From a bacterium (GTDB lineage: Bacteria > UBA8248), in assembly GCA_965261085.1 (NCBI GenBank), contig OZ253442.1:1312001-1376000 (forward strand): a stretch of 64,000 nucleotides of DNA, in the 5' to 3' direction. The translations under genes and the position numbers were made by a program. This document shows, piece after piece, positions 813 through 18,230 of this stretch. The notes under the pieces were generated by a model, which did no database searches, was not told where the DNA came from, and saw only the letters and a list, made by a program, of their open reading frames with translations. How positions within the stretch are numbered: position 1 is the stretch's first letter; each line of letters begins with the position of its first letter.

Positions 813-1208
813 CTCCGAATCCCTTTGCGGGAAATCCACTTTCAGTTCGCGCGAAGCTCCGGCCCCGGCGGGCAGAACGTGAACAAGGTGTCGAGCAAGG
901 CGGTGCTGCGCTGGAACATGGCCGCCTCGCCGAGCGCGCCCGATGACGTGAAGGAGAGGCTCCGCGCGCTCCACCCGCGCCGCGTGACGCGCGAGGGCGA
1001 GGTCGTCATCACGAGCAGCCGCTTTCGCGATCAGGGCCGAAACGTCGCCGATTGCCTGGAAAAACTGCGCGCCGCCCTCGCCGAAGTCTCTACGCCTCCC
1101 AAACCCAGACGCCCCACGCGCCCCACCCGCTCATCGGCCGAAAAACGCCTCCAGGAGAAACGCGAACGCGCCGATAAGAAGAGGAAGAGGGGGAAGGTGG
1201 AGGGGTGA
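813..1208 (+). CDS. arfB: Ribosome rescue peptidyl-tRNA hydrolase ArfB (YaeJ), 5' end apparently truncated
   Basis: SSGPGGQNVNK (GGQ) motif and basic C-terminal tail; frame reads LRIPLREIHF from 813 with no upstream ATG before an in-frame stop at 762; TTG 825 is a possible start. Confidence 0.9.
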   Translation, partial: LRIPLREIHFQFARSSGPGGQNVNKVSSKAVLRWNMAASPSAPDDVKERLRALHPRRVTREGEVVITSSRFRDQGRNVADCLEKLRAALAEVSTPPKPRRPTRPTRSSAEKRLQEKRERADKKRKRGKVEG

Positions 1209-1242
1209 CGCTTTTTGAAAGAAGGGTATGGAAATTTAAGTG

Positions 1243-2469
1243 TTACTCATTTTGGATTGATTCCCCTGCAAAGAGACGAACTATGAATCTTTCGCCTTCT
1301 TCTACAAGATAGGGATCGGTTCCGTTATGTTCTTTCATTCCACGAACGATTATACGGGGTACGCCCATCCCCATATGTTCCAGATACCCGTAGTCGCGCA
1401 TTATGTCTTTAAGGAGTTGATTTCTGGCAGCTCGGGTTCCGATTCGCATACGATCCGGTGTGATTCCATTTGGGAGTTTGCCAGGGGAGATTACCTCCAA
1501 TCGATCCTCATAAATTGCCAGTTCAATATCGGTGTCTGCCAGAAGGTAGTCCCTATGAATTAGGGCATTTACTACTGCCTCTCGAATGACCTTGGCTGGA
1601 TATGTTCTCTTTTCCACGCGACGCGTACCGTCTTCAAGGACGGCAGTCACAGGAGTGTTGCGTCTGACAAAATCTAGTGCCTGCTCGACTAACCCGGCTT
1701 CCAGAGTAGCACCGGTCTGATCTAAGAGTGGTGTCATCGGCCCGCGCAATGCCGCCCGTTCTTTAGTCGCATATTCTTTTTCCGTTCCCGGAAACACCGC
1801 CGCGTCGATGCCCGCTTGTGGCAGAAACCGGTTCGGTATTTTTCCGAAGAGCAGTATCCCTGAAAGGGTTACACCCTCTTCGACCATAATCTCCGTATTT
1901 ATCAGCAAGGACTCCCATCCCGCGCCTTCGTCATCTCCCGGAATATCCTGTTGGCGTATCCGGTTGAAGTAATCTTTCAGCCGACGGCGATCTAGATCAT
2001 CGACCGTTGCACCGGAAATCGGTCGCAGATCGGCGCGAAACGTGCCGCGTTGCTGAAATAGACGGCTTAATTCCTGTGGTGTCGGCTCCCGACTTTGCGA
2101 ACCTACCCGGATGTAATAAGTGTTCCTGTTGTTGTGCCACTGACTGTGCACGTCACCGCCGCGCGGCACTCGCACGATCGCCACGTCCTTACCCGGCTCC
2201 ACATCCTTGATCGTTTGAAAAAACGGAATGATGGCTGGTCTGATCTTGTCACGACATGCGTTCATAACCCACTCTTCCAGACGATCTCTCGTTAGCCCGG
2301 CAACGTTTCCATCATCATCCACGCCAAGCAGCACCATTCCGCCTTCTAAGTTCGAGAACGCGACAAGTTCTTTTGCCAAGTCATGGTTTTGCAAAACATC
2401 TAGTTTGAATTCGACGCCGGAATTTTCGCCGTTTGCGATTATTTCCAATAGTTCCGTCCGCGTTGTCAT
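1243..2469 (-). CDS. Schlafen/AlbA_2 domain fused to RecG C-terminal-like HATPase_c_4 domain
   Basis: ENSGVEFK and VAFSNLEGGMVLLGVDD (AlbA_2); REAVVNALIHRDY, ISPGKLP and RNQLL (HATPase_c_4). Confidence 0.85.
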   Translation of the reverse strand: MTTRTELLEIIANGENSGVEFKLDVLQNHDLAKELVAFSNLEGGMVLLGVDDDGNVAGLTRDRLEEWVMNACRDKIRPAIIPFFQTIKDVEPGKDVAIVRVPRGGDVHSQWHNNRNTYYIRVGSQSREPTPQELSRLFQQRGTFRADLRPISGATVDDLDRRRLKDYFNRIRQQDIPGDDEGAGWESLLINTEIMVEEGVTLSGILLFGKIPNRFLPQAGIDAAVFPGTEKEYATKERAALRGPMTPLLDQTGATLEAGLVEQALDFVRRNTPVTAVLEDGTRRVEKRTYPAKVIREAVVNALIHRDYLLADTDIELAIYEDRLEVISPGKLPNGITPDRMRIGTRAARNQLLKDIMRDYGYLEHMGMGVPRIIVRGMKEHNGTDPYLVEEGERFIVRLFAGESIQNE

Positions 2470-2472
2470 AGC

Positions 2473-5175
2473 TTAGAAACCATACTTGGAGCGACGCATC
2501 TCGAAGGCGTCTTTTCCACCTTCGAGTATTTCCTCGACCAACTCTCGTACTGGTTTAGAATCAATGGAACCCATATGTTCTGGAGCAATCCTGGCCTGTC
2601 CTACTTCCGCTTCGCCAGAAGCGGTAAGACCCAAGATGAGTTCCGCATCACCCAGTACGGGAATGTTCGCGTTATGTGTAGAGAAAACGAATTGTCGCCG
2701 TCGTTTTTCCTCCCTAATAATTGGCACGATGCCTTCGGTGATGAAGCGGTTGTCCAAGTCATCTTCGGGCTGATCTACTACAAGTGGGGCCTCGGCCTCA
2801 GATTCGAGCAGAAGGAGCAGAAGGATAGCTGTTGCTTTCTGCCCAGTAGAAAGCGCTTCTAGCGTTCGCCAATTAGCTTGCTCATTTTCCGCTGCCGTGT
2901 TGAGTTCGATTTTTGTTGTGGCTGGAAGTTCTAGCTCTTCGATTCTCATGAATAGGTCAAGACCACCTTGTGTAATCCGATCCGCCGCTCCTGAGGGGAA
3001 GCCATAATTCTCGATCAAGGATTCTTTACCTTCTCGGCATAGCTGCGTGAACTCCGGAAGGGATAGTTGATTCATCCTGCGAAGTCGTTCAAGAGCTGCA
3101 GCGAGATTGCCGCCAACTTCCTCCCGCAAAAGTTGTTCAAGTGGCTCGCGGTTTCCCGACATCGTGACTTCTACGCGCACTCGATTACATAGCTTTTTCG
3201 AAACTTTCCTAGCAGCCGCTTCAGTTTCACGGTATTCAGTAGCTTTAATGTCTTCCCACTCTGAGAGAAGCATGCGTCGATTCGACTCGTGAGTGGACAG
3301 ATCGCGCTTAAGTTTCTCTGTCCTATCATTTAGAGGGCGTAACTCCTCAATATCTTGACGTAGACGGATGAATTCTGAACCATCGATGTTTGATTTTTGA
3401 AGTTCTCGCAATAGCTTTTCGTAAGTTTCCTCAATAGTTCTACGCTGCTCGTTCCAACGCGATTTAGTATCCGCGATTGCTGAGTCGGTTTCGGACAACG
3501 CTTGCCCGAGTTGATCTGCAACTTCTTTGAGGCGTGTACTAAGTGTTTCGAGAATTTCCTCTATATTGTTTAAAATTCTCGCGTTTGGTAATCCTTCAAG
3601 CGCCTTTTGCGAGACGAAAGCCGTATCAATCGGAAGTTCATCGGCTAGTTCCCTATGAAGCACTCTCATCGGGGCTAACCGTTCTTCAACATTTGAGAAT
3701 AACCGATCTTCCCGAATTAGAAGACTTTTCTCCTTTAACTTCTCTTCCAATCCTGCTTCTTGGAATCGCTTTTGCATCTCTTCGAGACCGGGTAACGCCG
3801 CCAGCCGCTCCTCAAACCTTTTCATCTCTCGTTTTACGTCCACGATTCGGCTACGGGACTTCTCAAGCTCTAGTTGGACACTTGCCTTGCGCTCCAACAG
3901 AGACGAATCGCGATCTACGAATCGCTCCAGCAACAAAGTGAGTTTATCGGGACTTTTAGTAAGTTCGGAAATCTCATGCTGGCCGAATACTTCCACACCG
4001 GGCATCACGTCACGGGGCGAGAGCATCAGAATTTCACCACTCTCGTCTTTTACAGTGGGCGGATTCGGTACTGAACGTTCGACGGTATAGTGCCGTTCAG
4101 ACGGCTTGTGTGAACGTACTAATAGCGAAACTTTCGTCCCGGATTTCAGTACATGCTGTATTACTCCTTCATGAGTCTTGCGTGCATCTTCTCCTATTGG
4201 GTCAAGACCCAGCACATAGCGGATGCTTTCAACTATTGTTGATTTTCCCGTACCACGTCCGCCGATTAAGGTATTAAGATTACCATTGAAATGGACAGAG
4301 GTATCACGCAAAAATCCCTCTGTCTCCCATGTCATCGCCAGAAATTCGGCATGAAACTCCGGTTGCGAATCACTGTGCAGCCGCATACGGGACCCTGGGT
4401 CAAGGAACGCTTGGCGAAGTGCTTCGACGGAGACTTCTGACATCTTGATGAAGCAAGACGAACGTTCTTCTTGTAGGTCTTTGGGGTCATTCACATCCGA
4501 GGCATTTAAGATAGCTGGGGGATACGTTCGCTTGTGCTCGGCATTCTTGTTTTGAAGGATTGGCTTGATGTCCTCTGGGGCATCGCCAACTGGTCCGGGG
4601 AGCGCACAGGCAAGTAAATCTGGTGATGTCCAAACATTAACTCGTGTTTGTCCTGAGAGTTTTCTGAGCAGGCCACCGTCTGATGCTACATGTGCTGCGA
4701 TGCAAGCGGCTCCCCAACTCCTTGAATGTTCCAAAAGCTCAGTACAGTCCAACGTGCCTATTGGTGAGAGTTGGCTCGAATCATGAATGCCGCAATCCCC
4801 GATGAGCCTTTCTAGCTGATCATCTTTGTCGGGGTCGAAGAGGCAAAGAAAGTGAACACCGTCTTTCGTTACGGCTTCAAATCCGCTAAAAGCCCACAAA
4901 CTGGCTTCGCGAGCGGTGGCGATTAGGTTCCGAGAATCCGCTATGCGGTAATGGTCCGTGACGCCAATCACCTCGGTTTCTGTTTTAAGACAGGCCTCAA
5001 TGATTGCTTCGTTGTATTCGTCTTCGGACTGAAAAGGTGTCGATATATTATGCCTGATGAGATAAGCGAATGGGTTGACCTGCAAAGCGCAACGATAAAA
5101 CCGCGCACCATTCGGGAGAGCTAGTGCGGCTCGCATGGTTTCGGACTGGAATTGCTTGACTCCCTCCATAAACAC
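2473..5175 (-). CDS. PHP domain plus SMC/ABC-type ATPase with long coiled coil (TrlF/Ppl-like, putative antiphage)
   Basis: N-terminal VTDH, HFL, AAH, SD motifs; Walker A GGRGTGKS; signature LSTGQ; Walker B/D-loop VVDQPEDDLDN; H-loop STHN. Confidence 0.85.
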   Translation of the reverse strand: MFMEGVKQFQSETMRAALALPNGARFYRCALQVNPFAYLIRHNISTPFQSEDEYNEAIIEACLKTETEVIGVTDHYRIADSRNLIATAREASLWAFSGFEAVTKDGVHFLCLFDPDKDDQLERLIGDCGIHDSSQLSPIGTLDCTELLEHSRSWGAACIAAHVASDGGLLRKLSGQTRVNVWTSPDLLACALPGPVGDAPEDIKPILQNKNAEHKRTYPPAILNASDVNDPKDLQEERSSCFIKMSEVSVEALRQAFLDPGSRMRLHSDSQPEFHAEFLAMTWETEGFLRDTSVHFNGNLNTLIGGRGTGKSTIVESIRYVLGLDPIGEDARKTHEGVIQHVLKSGTKVSLLVRSHKPSERHYTVERSVPNPPTVKDESGEILMLSPRDVMPGVEVFGQHEISELTKSPDKLTLLLERFVDRDSSLLERKASVQLELEKSRSRIVDVKREMKRFEERLAALPGLEEMQKRFQEAGLEEKLKEKSLLIREDRLFSNVEERLAPMRVLHRELADELPIDTAFVSQKALEGLPNARILNNIEEILETLSTRLKEVADQLGQALSETDSAIADTKSRWNEQRRTIEETYEKLLRELQKSNIDGSEFIRLRQDIEELRPLNDRTEKLKRDLSTHESNRRMLLSEWEDIKATEYRETEAAARKVSKKLCNRVRVEVTMSGNREPLEQLLREEVGGNLAAALERLRRMNQLSLPEFTQLCREGKESLIENYGFPSGAADRITQGGLDLFMRIEELELPATTKIELNTAAENEQANWRTLEALSTGQKATAILLLLLLESEAEAPLVVDQPEDDLDNRFITEGIVPIIREEKRRRQFVFSTHNANIPVLGDAELILGLTASGEAEVGQARIAPEHMGSIDSKPVRELVEEILEGGKDAFEMRRSKYGF

Positions 5176-5400
5176 TTCACCTTTAGGTTTTATCTTGTTT
5201 CAATGGTTTAATGATATGCTTCTCGACGATATCCCTTCCCTCTCGTGTTTGATGATTCGTTTAACACACATCCGCGTTTTTTTCACTATAATGCACTATC
5301 CTAGGAACTCAACAGGCTCTTGGGTTTATTGTTGACTCTGGCAGAATTGATTTCCCTTCAGTGCAATCTCCACTCTTCCCTTATTATCTCCCCTTTCCTA

Positions 5401-5512
5401 ACGCTTAATAACGGGATTTGTTATTGAACTTTATGCGCTAAATGTTAACAGCGGGATTCGTTATTTTACTTTCGATGCTAAAAGCAAATAACGGTATTCG
5501 TTATTGTACTTT
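5401..5512. repeat. Three tandem 40-bp units, each with palindromic core AATAACG-N5-CGTTATT
   Basis: Cores at 5407, 5447 and 5487 (aataacgggatttgttatt, aacagcgggattcgttatt, aataacggtattcgttatt), each followed by NNACTTT. Confidence 0.85.
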
Positions 5513-5532
5513 GGTGAAGAAGGACATACCCC

Positions 5533-7137: not shown

Positions 7138-8301
7138 ATGACGGACGACACGAGGACGGGCGGTGCGAGAACCGACATATTCGACGGCGCCGATGGCGAC
7201 GACAATCTGGATGGCGGCGAAGGCGTCGACTTCCTCTTCGGCGGAAGCGGTGACGACACCCTCACCGGCGGCGGCGGGAGAGACTTCCTCCTGGGCGGGG
7301 GCGAAGTAGACACCATCTACGGCGGAACCGGAGATGACTGGATACGGGGCGGCAGCGGCGACGACACCATCGAGGGCGGCGAGGGCGACGACATCATCCT
7401 GGGCGACGCCGGGAACGACACCATCGACGCCGGCGCGGACGACGACACCATCATAGACGGAGGAGGCGACGACACCCTCACCGGCGGAACCGGCGAGGAC
7501 ACCTTCGCGTTCCTTCCGGGGCACGGTAGCGACACGATCACGGATTTCGACACCTCCGACGACCAGATAGACCTCTCCCAGTTCACCATGGCCATCACGT
7601 TCACACAGTTGCAAGCGAAGATGTCGACGGTCACGGATCCGAATGACGGCAACGTGGTAACGGGGGTGCAAATCGACCTCTCGGATTTCGGTGGGGGGAC
7701 GATCACGCTGGAGGGCATCACTGCCACCAGCGACCTGACCGCTGATATGTTCTGCCTGCCGGATTGCGACAGCCCGGTCGACGATCTTCTCGTGGAGAGT
7801 CCCGTCACGGGTGATGAGAACAGGAACTTTTATCTCGGCGGCACGGGCGATGGCACATTCACCACCCTGGGAGGCCATGACATCGTCTTCTCCGAAGAGG
7901 GTGATGACACCATCTACGGCGGTGAAGGCGAGGACTGGCTGGTCGGCGGCGAGGGGGCCGACACCATCGAGGGCGGCGCGGACGACGACCGGATCTATGG
8001 CGGCGAAGGCGCCGACACGATCACCGGCGGGACCGGGGACGACACGCTCACTGGCGGGGCCGGGGAGGACACATTCGTATTCAGCTCGGGTGATGGGAAC
8101 GACACGGTCACTGATTTCGAGAACGGGACGGACACTATCGATCTCTCCGCGATTACCGCCATCACCGGGTTTTCCGACCTGACGATCACACAAGAAGGCG
8201 ACGACACGAAGATCGACCTCGGCGAGAACGTGGGCGAGATCATACTCGAGGACTTCACTTCGACCAATCTGGATGCGACGGATTTCGACTTTTCGATGTG
8301 A
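7138..8301 (+). CDS. RTX/hemolysin-type calcium-binding repeat protein
   Basis: Many GGxGxD nonamers; two DT(I/V)TDF...IDLS modules; no Sec signal peptide; ends DFDFSM. Confidence 0.9.
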   Translation: MTDDTRTGGARTDIFDGADGDDNLDGGEGVDFLFGGSGDDTLTGGGGRDFLLGGGEVDTIYGGTGDDWIRGGSGDDTIEGGEGDDIILGDAGNDTIDAGADDDTIIDGGGDDTLTGGTGEDTFAFLPGHGSDTITDFDTSDDQIDLSQFTMAITFTQLQAKMSTVTDPNDGNVVTGVQIDLSDFGGGTITLEGITATSDLTADMFCLPDCDSPVDDLLVESPVTGDENRNFYLGGTGDGTFTTLGGHDIVFSEEGDDTIYGGEGEDWLVGGEGADTIEGGADDDRIYGGEGADTITGGTGDDTLTGGAGEDTFVFSSGDGNDTVTDFENGTDTIDLSAITAITGFSDLTITQEGDDTKIDLGENVGEIILEDFTSTNLDATDFDFSM

Positions 8302-10829: not shown

Positions 10830-11099
10830 TCACTCGAACAGGTCCGAATGCGTGCCCGTTCGGATGAGAGTAACCGAGTCCTCGGCCTCATCCCAGATGA
10901 GGAGCCAGTCGGGTTCTATATGACATTCCCGGCAGGGTGACCATTCACCGGACAGGCGATGGAGTCTGTTTTGTTGATCGATCGGTTCGCCGGCGAGCAA
11001 TTTATCGACGATGCGCATGAGCTTTTCGATGTCTTTGCCGCGTTTTCTGGTTCTTCTGAGGTCTCTTTTGAACTGCGTGGTTGCGCGAAGTTCACGCAT
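10830..11099 (-). CDS. yafQ: Type II TA toxin, YafQ family mRNA interferase
   Basis: FKRDL, HRLSGEW, RECHIEPDWLLI, RTGTHSDLF. Confidence 0.9.
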   Translation of the reverse strand: MRELRATTQFKRDLRRTRKRGKDIEKLMRIVDKLLAGEPIDQQNRLHRLSGEWSPCRECHIEPDWLLIWDEAEDSVTLIRTGTHSDLFE

Positions 11100-11373
11100 C
11101 GTCGAGTTCGGCGATCAACTCCTCGACGCCGCCATACGTGCTTAATCCTTCCTCGGCGCGCGCCTGCCGAATAGCTTCGCGGGTCTCCTCGTTGGGGGTC
11201 GGTTGCGGTGGCAGACCATGATGCGAGACGAGCAACTCGTAGAACAAGGGAATCGCCTTATAGAACAGCGTGATCGCTTCGGTCGGCGACAGACCGAGCG
11301 CGGAGAAAATTTTTTCGGCCTCTTGCTTCAATTCGGGATCCATCGGCGTGCGGATCATTTCCGTGTTGTCCAT
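11092..11373 (-). CDS. dinJ: Type II TA antitoxin, RelB/DinJ family
   Basis: ELKQEAEKIFSALGLSPTEAI...GLP...PNEETREAI; GGAGG RBS before ATG 11373; overlaps toxin start. Confidence 0.85.
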   Translation of the reverse strand: MDNTEMIRTPMDPELKQEAEKIFSALGLSPTEAITLFYKAIPLFYELLVSHHGLPPQPTPNEETREAIRQARAEEGLSTYGGVEELIAELDDA

Positions 11374-11527
11374 GGCGCGCCTCCTTTCCTTAAAAATAAT
11401 CGCAATATTGGGGAAGGTCAACATACCATCAACCCGCTCATGCGTCGTTAGGAGTCAATTCCGACCGAGAAGAGGGGGCGTGCCTTTTGTAGGGGCGACT
11501 CTCCGTGGTCGTCCGTCCCCCTTCCCC

Positions 11528-12980: not shown

Positions 12981-14513
12981 ATGAGAATGCGTATTCAGCC
13001 ACTGGAAATCGACGTACCCGAAGACGATCCGTTCAAAAACGATCTGCTCGGACGAGAAGAGACAGTCAAGGTTCTCACCCATATCGTCCGTTCCATCGAG
13101 GGGCCGTGCGTTCTGTCGGTCGATGCGGCATGGGGAGCCGGGAAAACCACGTTTCTCAATATCTGGGCGCAGCACCTCCGCAACGAGGGGTTTCCCGTCG
13201 TCGGGTTCAACGCTTGGGAGACGGACTTCTCCGAGGAGCCTTTCATCGCTCTTTCGACCGAATTGACGGTGGGTCTTAATCAAGAATGTGAAAAATGTGC
13301 GGATGACTCGCTAAAGGAGTCGCTAAAAAAGAAGGTTAATGATGTAAAGGGCAAAGCGAAGGAGGTCGCCCGATCACTCATTCCGGGAATCATTAAGGCT
13401 GCCGCCGCTGGCATTCCGTTAGTTGGAGGCGAATTGGGCCAAGCACTTGCTTCCTTGGCTGAAGAAAAGCTGAACGCATACGAGAAAGCGCGTATGTCGG
13501 TCAAGGATTTCAACCGCACCTTAGGGGAAATGGCGAAATCCTTATCAAAATCGAGAAAAGACCGTCCGCTGGTCATGGTGATTGACGAGTTGGACAGGTG
13601 CCGCCCTTCCTACGCCGTCGAGCTTCTTGAAGTCGCCAAACACATCTTCGCCGTGGAGCATGTCGTCTTCGTGCTGGGGGTCAATCGCTCCCAACTCGCG
13701 CATTCGGTCAAAGCGCTTTACGGGGTTGAGTTTGATGCCTTGGACTACCTAGGCCGTTTCTTTGATTTGGACTTCCGCCTCCCTGAGCCCGACCGATCTG
13801 CGTTTGTAGACTCGATGATGAAAGAAACAAGAATAAACCATTACCTGATAGAACGATGCAAAGGAATCGCTGCTTCGGAAAGAGACGAGATAGGTGGATC
13901 TCAAGAGCTGTTGCATGATTTCTTGGGAAAGATTGATCTCAGCCTTCGCGAGATTGGACAGGCTATCCACCGGCTGGGGCTAGTGTTCACATCTTTACCA
14001 AGAGACCAGTTGTTGTTTTCTGGAATGATGACAGTGATGTTCCTGCTTCGGACGAGCGACACCGATCTTTATTATCGGTTCATCGACGGCGAAGTTTCCG
14101 ATCTTGAAGTTGTGGATGCGGTGTTCAATCGCCCCGGAATCAAGACTCTTCGACACACGCCTGGAGGTCAGTTTTTTGAGCTTATGATCATCGTAGCTGC
14201 GGAGGAGAGACAGAGCGAATTGAATCAGAGTGAGCAGATATTTGAAAATTCGCGTTTGTTGGAACGATATCGTGCAGATTCTATTGGAGTGGAATCTTCT
14301 GATCAACAACACGCTAAGATAATGATTGCAAAAATTAATGCTTTCAGCCCAGGCCATACTGGCTATAGAGGGTTCAAACAGGCAGTTGAGCGGATTGAAT
14401 TGCTCTCAACCGTTCTTATAGAGCCGGAGCCGTCGCCTCTTAAATACAATGCAAGTCTGAGCAAAGCGACTGGATCGGTCAATACTCAAGCCTACCCCAA
14501 GGAACCCTCCTGA
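12981..14513 (+). CDS. KAP family P-loop NTPase
   Basis: AAWGAGKT, FNAWETD, IDELDRCRP, YLGRFFD. Confidence 0.9.
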   Translation: MRMRIQPLEIDVPEDDPFKNDLLGREETVKVLTHIVRSIEGPCVLSVDAAWGAGKTTFLNIWAQHLRNEGFPVVGFNAWETDFSEEPFIALSTELTVGLNQECEKCADDSLKESLKKKVNDVKGKAKEVARSLIPGIIKAAAAGIPLVGGELGQALASLAEEKLNAYEKARMSVKDFNRTLGEMAKSLSKSRKDRPLVMVIDELDRCRPSYAVELLEVAKHIFAVEHVVFVLGVNRSQLAHSVKALYGVEFDALDYLGRFFDLDFRLPEPDRSAFVDSMMKETRINHYLIERCKGIAASERDEIGGSQELLHDFLGKIDLSLREIGQAIHRLGLVFTSLPRDQLLFSGMMTVMFLLRTSDTDLYYRFIDGEVSDLEVVDAVFNRPGIKTLRHTPGGQFFELMIIVAAEERQSELNQSEQIFENSRLLERYRADSIGVESSDQQHAKIMIAKINAFSPGHTGYRGFKQAVERIELLSTVLIEPEPSPLKYNASLSKATGSVNTQAYPKEPS

Positions 14514-16751: not shown

Positions 16752-18230
16752 GTGAGAGGATTTTTCGGCAAGCGGATTCTGGCGGTTCTCGTCGCGGCGT
16801 TGGCGTTGGGTTTTTTGGCGCAAACGGGGGTGTCCTTCGCTCAAGCGGTGGCGGAGAAGGGGGTGGTGAAGGAGGCTGTCCCGGCGAAGGTGGGGAAGGG
16901 GGCGGGTCAGGAAGCCAAGTCTGCTGCTGCACCTCCTAAACCAGCGATTCCTCCCGCCACGGAAGTCGAAATTCAGCGCCGCTTCAATGAGTTGAAAGGT
17001 GAACTGCTGGATAAGAGCGAAAAGGATGCGGCCACTCTTATCGAACTCAGGCGTGAAGTGTTGGATGACTGGGCGAGCACTGTCACGTGGTGGCTGACCG
17101 GTATCGCCGTATTTCTTGTCATTGGTGGTTTTATCGGAATTAAGATTTTCCGTGACATCGTAAACGATGCGCGCGAAAGTGCGAAGGAGGCCTCTCGAAT
17201 CGTAACCGATGCGCGAGAGAGTGCGAAGGCGGCCAAGCAAATTGTCGAAGCAATGGAGAAGAATCGGGAAAGAGCTGAAGATATACTTGGGCAACTAGCG
17301 ATCATTCTTTCTTCACCAGAGAATGACCTTTCCTCTCAGGAGGATGACAGCAGAGAGCAAACGGTTGAAGTCCAAGAACAGGGCAGTAAAAATGAAATCA
17401 TTGAAGCGTGGCGGAACATCGCGAAGGTCGCTGAAGGAAGCGATAATGATCTTGCTGCTAGAGCTTGGTTTTCGATTGGTTATTTGCTTGGACAACAGGA
17501 AAAGTACCAAGAAGCGATTGTCGCCTGTAACGAAGCTATCCGTCTGAAACCGGACTTAGCTAGAGCCTATAACAACCGAGGCATTGCGAAGCGGCGCATG
17601 GGCCAATATGAAGATGCCATTGCCGATTTTGACGAGGCGATTCGCCTGGACTCAAATTATGCTAGAGCCTATAACAACCGAGGCAGTGCGAAGCGGCAAC
17701 TGAACCAATATGAAGATGCCATTGAGGATTTCAATGAGGCTATCCGTCTGAAGCCGGACTATGCCTTTGCCTATAACAACCGAGGTAATGCGAAGCGGCA
17801 ACTGAACCAATATGAAGATGCCATTGAGGATTTCAATGAGGCTATCCGTCTGAAACCGGACTTGGCTAGAGCCTATAACAACCGAGGCAGTGCGAAGCGG
17901 CGATTGAACCAATATGAAGATGCCATTGCCGATTTTGACGAGGCTATCCGTCTGAAACCGGACTTGGCTAGAGCCTATAACAACCGAGGCAGTGCGAAGC
18001 GGCAACTGAACCAATATGAAGATGCCATTGCCGATTTTGACGAGGCGATTCGCCTTGATTCAGATTACGCTAGAGCCTACTACAACCGGGGCCTTGCGCA
18101 TCTGGCACTAGGTGACCAAGAAGCGGCGCGGTCGGACTTCGAAAAAGCGCGAGATTTAGCGCACGCGGCAAGTAATGAAACCCTCGTAACGCGGACGGAG
18201 CAAAAGTTACAAGAACTAGACGAACAATAA
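16752..18230 (+). CDS. Membrane-anchored tetratricopeptide repeat protein
   Basis: Signal peptide, TM segment (WWLTGIAVFLVIGGFIGI), about 7 TPRs (AYNNRG...YEDAI.DF.EAIRL). Confidence 0.9.
   Translation: MRGFFGKRILAVLVAALALGFLAQTGVSFAQAVAEKGVVKEAVPAKVGKGAGQEAKSAAAPPKPAIPPATEVEIQRRFNELKGELLDKSEKDAATLIELRREVLDDWASTVTWWLTGIAVFLVIGGFIGIKIFRDIVNDARESAKEASRIVTDARESAKAAKQIVEAMEKNRERAEDILGQLAIILSSPENDLSSQEDDSREQTVEVQEQGSKNEIIEAWRNIAKVAEGSDNDLAARAWFSIGYLLGQQEKYQEAIVACNEAIRLKPDLARAYNNRGIAKRRMGQYEDAIADFDEAIRLDSNYARAYNNRGSAKRQLNQYEDAIEDFNEAIRLKPDYAFAYNNRGNAKRQLNQYEDAIEDFNEAIRLKPDLARAYNNRGSAKRRLNQYEDAIADFDEAIRLKPDLARAYNNRGSAKRQLNQYEDAIADFDEAIRLDSDYARAYYNRGLAHLALGDQEAARSDFEKARDLAHAASNETLVTRTEQKLQELDEQ
17520..18092 (+). 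repeat. Near-identical 102-bp tandem repeats encoding TPRs
   Basis: gctagagcctataacaaccgaggc-type block recurs at 17559, 17661, 17763, 17865, 17967 and 18069. Confidence 0.9.

Follow-up and report, generated by a model that had tools for sequence, protein, structure and literature searches.

The 64,000-nucleotide (nt) stretch analyzed here (the window; positions 1,312,001 to 1,376,000 of contig OZ253442.1, assembly GCA_965261085.1, from a bacterium of the GTDB lineage UBA8248) carries, near its left end, two minus-strand genes for a 900-amino acid (aa) ATPase (open reading frame 1, ORF1) and a 408-aa Schlafen-GHKL protein (ORF2), with 3 nt between the ORF1 stop codon and the ORF2 start codon (…TAA GCT ATG…) (Table 1). 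Sequence comparison identifies them as a distant member of TrlF–TrlG, a real, conserved, and mobile gene pair. The flanking genes are arfB (NF006718, 144.5 bits against a cut-off of 100) and ppk2 (TIGR03707, 381.8 bits against a cut-off of 301.8). The GC content of ORF1 (0.489) and ORF2 (0.509) is well below that of arfB (0.669) and ppk2 (0.650), as is their GC content at third codon positions (0.46 and 0.50, vs 0.83–0.85 for the flanks). Because the two-gene module (GC content 0.496) is poorer in GC than any stretch of equal length between 5600 and 64000 of the window (minimum 0.560), the module and its low-GC surround, approximately 1200–5500, constitute a foreign insert. No integrase was seen near the module in the window annotation, and a repeat search found no att-like repeats flanking it. 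The original prediction, made from the same DNA, had described a 900-aa ATPase gene followed 3 bp on by an AlbA_2–HATPase_c_4 gene, lower in GC than their flanks and lying between arfB and ppk2; coordinates, domain models, and composition agree with it on each point.

Domain composition of the two proteins

ORF1 passes the NCBIfam model of the TrlF family (NF045780; 508.7 bits against a cut-off of 350, residues 22–899) and fails that of Ppl (NF042955; 160.1 bits against a cut-off of 1000), and is assigned on these scores to the TrlF family and not to Ppl itself; with the Rad50, SMC, and RecN models, it scores far below cut-off. In its AlphaFold model (pLDDT 93.5), residues 25–271 resemble the PHP endonuclease EndoQ (5zb8; Z 19.1, root-mean-square deviation (rmsd) 3.5, 220 aligned residues), and residues 275–885 are matched by the coiled-coil-bearing head of an SMC protein (5xei; Z 22.1, rmsd 6.0, 377 aligned residues). 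The proposal that ORF1 combines a PHP domain with a coiled-coil ABC/SMC ATPase is borne out by the predicted fold, which establishes the PHP domain, although no Pfam match to PHP was reported.

Residue conservation was counted over 104 aligned TrlF relatives. The Walker A lysine K311 is kept in all 104, Q399 in 100, and S776, G778, D801, Q802, E804, D808, and H834 in 104 each. Canonical PHP metal sites open with an HxH motif and include a later terminal histidine. In TrlF, H75, E100, and D227 show no variation and H108 and H162 almost none, the first motif has become Q32-x-N34 (Q32 in 94/104, N34 in 93/104), and the last histidine is lost; relative to the canonical motif, five ligands are kept and three histidines are replaced, which suggests a pocket that is remodelled rather than decayed. 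The same remodelled site is common to solo TrlFs and to those paired with TrlG. In one locus (L053:9746-12034), the PHP domain of TrlF is largely deleted and trlG is absent.

Both Pfam domains of ORF2, SLFN_AlbA_2 (residues 15–128) and HATPase_c_4 (residues 313–399), score above cut-off, and no helicase domain was found by Pfam. The best fold match of its model (pLDDT 88.8) is DIP2311 (3lmm, E 1.8e-20), followed by human SLFN12, SLFN14, and SLFN11; the SLFN13 fold was also recovered. An Ex4(E/D)xK motif and a Schlafen box define prokaryotic Schlafens (bioRxiv 10.64898/2026.05.29.728809; PMC13056530), and E15, E/D20, and K22, together with E297 and N301 of the GHKL core, are each present in 46 of 46 aligned ORF2 relatives. 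The E-x3-N spacing of the GHKL core equals that of E314/N318 of RzAgo, as a match of motifs rather than of aligned sequences. ORF2 is a prokaryotic Schlafen-GHKL (“Schlatpase”) unit with predicted RNase activity. The Schlafen proteins linked to TrlF end at most 9 residues past the GHKL fold, vs 67–97 extra residues in six unlinked ones, a difference that is a hint only. A further protein (P0392, 854 aa) combines PLD and SNF2 domains with a fused GHKL region that shares 53% identity with ORF2.

Table 1. Features of the two-gene module and its upstream spacer, in window coordinates.
Feature	Position	Strand	Description
trlF-like gene	2473..5175	-	900 aa; start GTG 5175 or ATG 5169; PHP domain and ABC ATPase head whose two lobes are separated by a long antiparallel coiled coil
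PHP domain, remodelled metal site	4363..5106	-	Residues ~24-271; EndoQ 5zb8 Z 19.1; alignment columns over 104 sequences
ATPase N-lobe	3910..4353	-	Residues ~275-422; Walker A K311, Q-loop Q399
Coiled coil (~423-662) and helical insert (~663-752)	2920..3909	-	DSSP on model
ATPase C-lobe	2476..2919	-	Residues ~753-900; signature LSTGQ, non-canonical Walker B DQPE, His switch H834
trlG-like gene	1243..2469	-	408 aa; predicted Schlafen RNase and GHKL ATPase (“Schlatpase”), without C-terminal helix-turn-helix tail
Schlafen domain	2086..2427	-	Predicted catalytic E15-x4-E20-x-K22 and Schlafen box
GHKL ATPase core	1270..1602	-	E297, N301
Three 40-nt tandem repeats, palindromic core (Family D2)	5398..5517		In the ppk2–trlF spacer, upstream of trlF, within the low-GC stretch

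Spread and genomic context of the pair

A scan of GTDB genomes gave at least 710 matching stretches, the best 80 of which correspond to 50 loci with 45–74% identity; the counts from these loci hold for this clade alone. The Schlafen gene lies directly behind the ATPase gene in 42 of the 47 informative loci, with one locus interrupted by an insertion and four without the Schlafen gene, and three further loci end too early. Rare co-occurrence of the homologues, which the original prediction had named as speaking against it, is thus not what was found. The gap between trlF and trlG ranges from -8 to +18 nt in 41 measured loci (one locus, L015, is cut by a contig end, and L050 is frameshifted). 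The insertion (L040:12640-14880) consists of a small ORF and a 545-aa ORF with no Pfam match that part trlF from a 5′-truncated trlG, and we take it to resemble an IS607-type element. Hosts of the pair include Pseudomonadota, Nitrospirota, Acidobacteriota, Chloroflexota, Actinomycetota, and an ANME archaeon, among others, and are mixed on the tree; in 31 of 38 loci, the GC content of the pair falls below that of the flanking DNA. Any other neighbour is shared by at most 7 of 54 loci.

The same gene order is found in a lineage comprising pNDM, Yersinia, and Pseudomonas sequences and in Burkholderia, at TrlF identities of at most 25%, and the pairing thus occurs in three deep TrlF lineages; a single origin is not claimed, as the deep branches of the TrlF tree are unresolved. 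Sampled plasmid records with a TrlF match (12 of 1133; 26–35% identity) include two with the partner and 10 without it; more distant TrlFs thus mostly lack the Schlafen gene, a point absent from the original prediction. From the side of ORF2, a sample of 12 out of 189 matching plasmid records has trlF upstream in six of six at identities of at least 29.8% (one of them frameshifted) and in none of six at 24–28%. Of 5426 complete E. coli genomes, 38 carry one lineage of the pair, which is also present on IncC plasmids. A phage collection held seven TrlF matches (best 26.6% identity), and a cluster search with one homologue (P0034) returned only TrlF/PHP-ATPase clusters.

Pairwise distances of TrlF and TrlG are correlated (r 0.79, 40 pairs, 0 of 5000 permutations), and their FastTree phylogenies have 14 of 37 splits in common, vs 0.2 when shuffled, while 12 of 23 well-supported TrlF splits clash with the TrlG tree. 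This pattern points to co-inheritance with exchange of partners and is no proof of contact between the proteins. In two loci, an intact trlG stands next to a disrupted trlF, which has a frameshift near codon 160 (L074) or a stop near codon 109 (L018); the ATPase part is open in both. One 1354-aa protein (P0357) joins both proteins, its residues 952–1338 being 49% identical to ORF2; it was dropped as evidence of fusion because the junction lacks the conserved C-terminal ending of TrlF and is frameshift-like. A search for longer forms, itself weak evidence, found no second TrlF–TrlG fusion among 7998 candidates.

Defence genes in the neighbourhoods were sought with the PADLOC 2.0 library (2023 release) in 310 of 353 neighbouring ORFs within approximately 5.5 kb, plus one, with generic transporter-, kinase-, and regulator-like matches set aside. 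Restriction-modification (RM), methylase, or Hma genes occur within approximately 5.5 kb in 16 of the 50 loci and another plausible defence match in eight more; the resulting 24 of 50 agree with the predicted defence-island setting as a count, which has no matched background from which to claim enrichment. Operons of type I/III restriction, Hma, or BREX often surround or adjoin the pair. It lies inside Hma in three loci (L019, L020, and L021), is embedded in the type I RM systems of two IncC plasmids, and is found between the BREX genes pglX and pglZ. In Halapricum (L062:4483-8969), TrlF is followed by a DUF262 gene in an Hma-like locus, and TrlF may take partners other than TrlG. A PADLOC search had been suggested as a check of the pair itself, and no system in this library was matched by both genes; ORF2 matches only Argonaute-linked N-terminal regions.

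In the spacer upstream of trlF in the window, the tandem repeats form a possible operator array: their pattern has four matches at two mismatches, vs 0.39 expected, a figure inflated by derivation of the pattern from the repeats themselves. Repeats of this type were not found upstream of trlF homologues and are not RptR-type sites. A scan for promoters and terminators gave five promoter-like sites, vs 4.0 expected, and nothing usable. The nearest other candidates to the module are a pair resembling YafQ–DinJ at 10.8–11.4 kb (10830–11424, minus strand; a RelB/DinJ-like antitoxin and a YafQ-like toxin) and a KAP P-loop NTPase at 13–14.5 kb (12981–14513, plus strand; GC 0.50), which matches PADLOC candidate PDC-S20 (E 2.8e-113) and is probably a second defence insert. 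The plus strand also encodes a 387-aa protein made up mostly of RTX calcium-binding repeats (7138–8301) and, behind a DUF3604 gene, a TPR-repeat protein (16752–18230; GC 0.515). A second low-GC stretch (approximately 0.46–0.49) occupies the left edge of the window before arfB (1–800), where an ORF at 1–330 has no Pfam match.

Published record and function of the pair

The original prediction does not mention that the pair is already in print: in Photorhabdus, TrlF and TrlG belong to the “Temperature Restriction Locus” (TRL) (bioRxiv 10.1101/2020.06.02.129163; PMC7554251). There, growth arrest at 36°C requires TrlG, and transcription is induced; among heat-tolerant isolates, trlG was altered in 20 of 29 sequenced and two more, and the larger trlF in none; and trlR, trlF, and trlG occur all together in only a few genera (bioRxiv 10.1101/2020.06.02.129163). 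A term search of PMC7554251 gave zero occurrences each of phage, Schlafen, and ATPase. A Y. ruckeri plasmid locus (L073) fits the TRL description, and its TrlF and TrlG are 24.8% and 29.8% (E 4e-45) identical to the window proteins. The 79-aa TrlR of this locus matches the type I RM repressor RptR (PDB 9r2z, E 2e-34) and is 91% identical to the product of a gene before hsdM in L001 (L073:1679-2383, L001:3872-4111); an hsdM fragment lies between trlR and trlF in L073. TrlR is on this evidence an RptR homologue, and so TRL looks like a decayed restriction island. A tblastn search of the 64-kb window (E 0.1) found no match to the 79-aa TrlR.

The same pair has also been reported from type I RM operons under RptR control. 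In four genomes, it is noted between hsdS and hsdR as a cassette of “unknown function” (an RNA-binding protein and an AAA-like ATPase), in a section that neither identifies its domains nor tests it; WP_004722060.1, which is the L073 TrlF, is among the TrlF family members in the supplement of that paper (PMC12255303). Within the literature searched, the gene pair is thus in print, while the defence reading, the identity of TrlR with RptR, and the reading of TRL as autoimmunity are apparently new.

Intact motifs, gene order, near-zero spacing, spread across phyla, and embedding in RM, Hma, and BREX loci support the pair as defence cargo; the original idea of a candidate defence pair is upheld by co-occurrence, motifs, and restriction-operon embedding, with TrlF taking the place of Ppl. 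We consider it moderately probable that the two genes form a coupled abortive-infection module that backs up DNA-modification defences. Through its Rad50-like head, TrlF would sense DNA ends produced by phage, a shortage of nucleotides, or anti-restriction proteins. TrlG would be the effector, since it combines an intact RNase motif with active relatives and TrlG-dependent arrest, and cleavage of tRNA would halt translation once TrlG is free to form an ATP-driven oligomer; a Schlafen-GHKL unit fused to Argonaute tetramerises on ATP and cleaves tRNA (bioRxiv 10.64898/2026.05.29.728809).

How TrlF acts on TrlG within such a module is approached through the Photorhabdus genetics. They indicate that TrlG is the toxic part and TrlF no required activator of its heat toxicity: mutants of the larger trlF should have been frequent among the tolerant isolates if TrlF were required, and zero among 20–22 has a probability of approximately 5e-11 under equal mutability, a value calculated with Yersinia gene lengths from isolates that are not all independent. 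From the lack of trlF suppressors, it follows that TrlF holds TrlG in check or has no bearing on its heat toxicity; a simple scheme of an ATPase that activates an RNase is disfavoured. The TRL authors’ argument that loss of trlF is harmless presumably rests on a deletion of the whole operon, by which TrlG would be lost as well. The arrangement that we favour, if tentatively, is that TrlF keeps TrlG inactive until a trigger and then releases it, as in PARIS, in keeping with how seldom close relatives of TrlG lack trlF; that TrlF instead switches TrlG on, or exerts mixed control, is in our view somewhat less likely.

Several observations weigh against coupling and against a defence role. TrlF can be kept alone, as in 10 of the 12 distant plasmid loci, and trlG is absent from 4 of the 47 close loci; partner exchange, evident from the clashing splits, argues against a tightly co-evolved TrlF–TrlG interface, and a broken trlF beside an intact trlG argues against a strict antitoxin role of TrlF. 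Because solo TrlFs share the remodelled PHP site, it is no sign that the effector role was handed over, and the idea of a dead PHP domain ceding its function to Schlafen was rejected. Tail-less Schlafen-HisKinase proteins are the commonest architecture in general, at 34% (PMC13056530). Approximately half of the loci lack a defence neighbour, and the window copy stands alone, with no RM operon near it. No published phage test of the pair, and no naming of TrlG as a Schlafen, was found in a mostly open literature; as the PADLOC release is from 2023, the pair may be listed among newer candidates. In E. coli, neither of two Schlafen-HisKinase genes tested alone conferred defence (PMC13056530); their listed neighbours in the accessible data include no Ppl, so this result is no test of the pair, and PplA occurs near Schlafen genes in at least 15 rows of the source table of that paper.

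In an alternative view, two independent defence genes travel together, TrlF as a self-sufficient nuclease-ATPase like Ppl and TrlG as an effector that acts autonomously, with a shared promoter and perhaps a shared NTP trigger and with no mutual control. Solo TrlFs, partner swaps, and broken trlF genes fit independence, as do the five PHP ligands still conserved in TrlF and the Schlafen-GHKL genes found on their own in many BREX loci (this class makes up 58.6% of prokaryotic Schlafen proteins; bioRxiv 10.64898/2026.05.29.728809), and the absence of trlF suppressors suits autonomy as well. However, independence leaves little reason for three deep TrlF lineages to keep the two genes in one order with almost no gap, for trlF to lie upstream of each of the six closer TrlG relatives sampled, or for the lack of any other frequent neighbour, and we regard it as rather unlikely.

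A growth-arrest or addiction module that responds to stress or temperature and has no phage role, as the Photorhabdus authors proposed, would account directly for the sole measured phenotype of the pair, the TrlG-dependent arrest at 36°C (bioRxiv 10.1101/2020.06.02.129163), and for its being common on plasmids. It sits poorly with a scattered distribution that covers unrelated phyla and includes an archaeon, and with low GC relative to the flanks, whereas embedding in RM, BREX, and Hma loci and regulation by an RM repressor fit defence cargo; heat arrest might moreover be misfiring, and we judge this account improbable. The database names (RecN-like ATPase, RecG helicase) and the Rad50/SMC-like fold with an EndoQ-like PHP domain would suit a DNA repair or recombination pair, yet ORF2 has no helicase domain, ORF1 falls far short of the Rad50, SMC, and RecN models, the distribution is sporadic and mobile, and the TRL authors call the recG name a misnomer (bioRxiv 10.1101/2020.06.02.129163), so that a repair role seems very improbable.

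In its full form, the coupled-module reading that we prefer is a tentative one: the pair would be a widespread two-component immune system in which a Ppl-like Rad50 sensor, TrlF, cages a Schlafen-GHKL tRNase and releases it once phage attacks or disables the RM, BREX, or Hma system around it, and TRL arrest would be heat-triggered autoimmunity of a decayed, RptR-controlled island. If so, the pair would stand beside PrrC and PARIS as their Schlafen counterpart, its Schlafen protein being controlled by a regulator encoded in trans, and “temperature restriction” in Photorhabdus would be autoimmunity and not temperature adaptation. Schlafen-GHKL is the largest prokaryotic Schlafen class, for which the conserved partner ATPase is a candidate controller, and the reading links three separate papers (on TRL, RptR, and Schlatpase) and offers a mechanism for growth arrest.

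Comparison with known systems

The window pair has the gene order and domains of TRL (Alba_2 and HATPase_c_4 in TrlG; the TrlF model is passed), and differs as a distant lineage without trlR in the window and with QxN for HxH in the PHP site, a comparison made by alignment to the Y. ruckeri proteins. The RptR-associated cassette is the same pair, whereas the window copy lies outside an RM operon (PMC12255303). Ppl, the best PADLOC match of ORF1 (E 5.6e-34), shares its length and its architecture of a PHP domain fused to a Rad50-like ABC ATPase. However, Ppl is a single-gene system, while the window module has a second gene, as do most close loci, in a wider family that includes solo copies; ORF1 also has altered PHP ligands, as judged from the canonical motif rather than an aligned Ppl sequence. 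According to a review, Ppl is a single-stranded DNA 3′–5′ exonuclease whose activity is licensed when NTPs run low and by DNA ends.

ORF2 shares its Schlafen-GHKL unit and motifs with the Schlatpase of SLFN-pAgo (bioRxiv 10.64898/2026.05.29.728809) and with pSlfn1 (PMC13056530), and matches the N-terminal region of prokaryotic Argonaute in PADLOC (E 4e-14); unlike SLFN-pAgo, ORF2 has no fused sensor, and its proposed regulator is a separate gene. No conserved partner is reported for the SLFN-pAgo clade in the accessible text (bioRxiv 10.64898/2026.05.29.728809).

Defences that combine an ATPase with a tRNase are already a known kind. PARIS (AriA–AriB), PrrC/RloC, and Lamassu likewise couple an ABC ATPase sensor to a nuclease effector, and in PARIS the AriB effector is released from AriA. 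The matches of ORF1 to AriA and LmuB in PADLOC are weak and confined to ATPase motifs. Both PrrC and PARIS cleave tRNA and serve as a second line behind restriction systems, with a corresponding logic of embedding (bioRxiv 10.1101/2024.01.29.577857; PMC12839542). The window module differs from these systems in that its predicted effector is a Schlafen-GHKL protein, not a TOPRIM or HEPN nuclease, and in that its ATPase has a PHP domain of its own.

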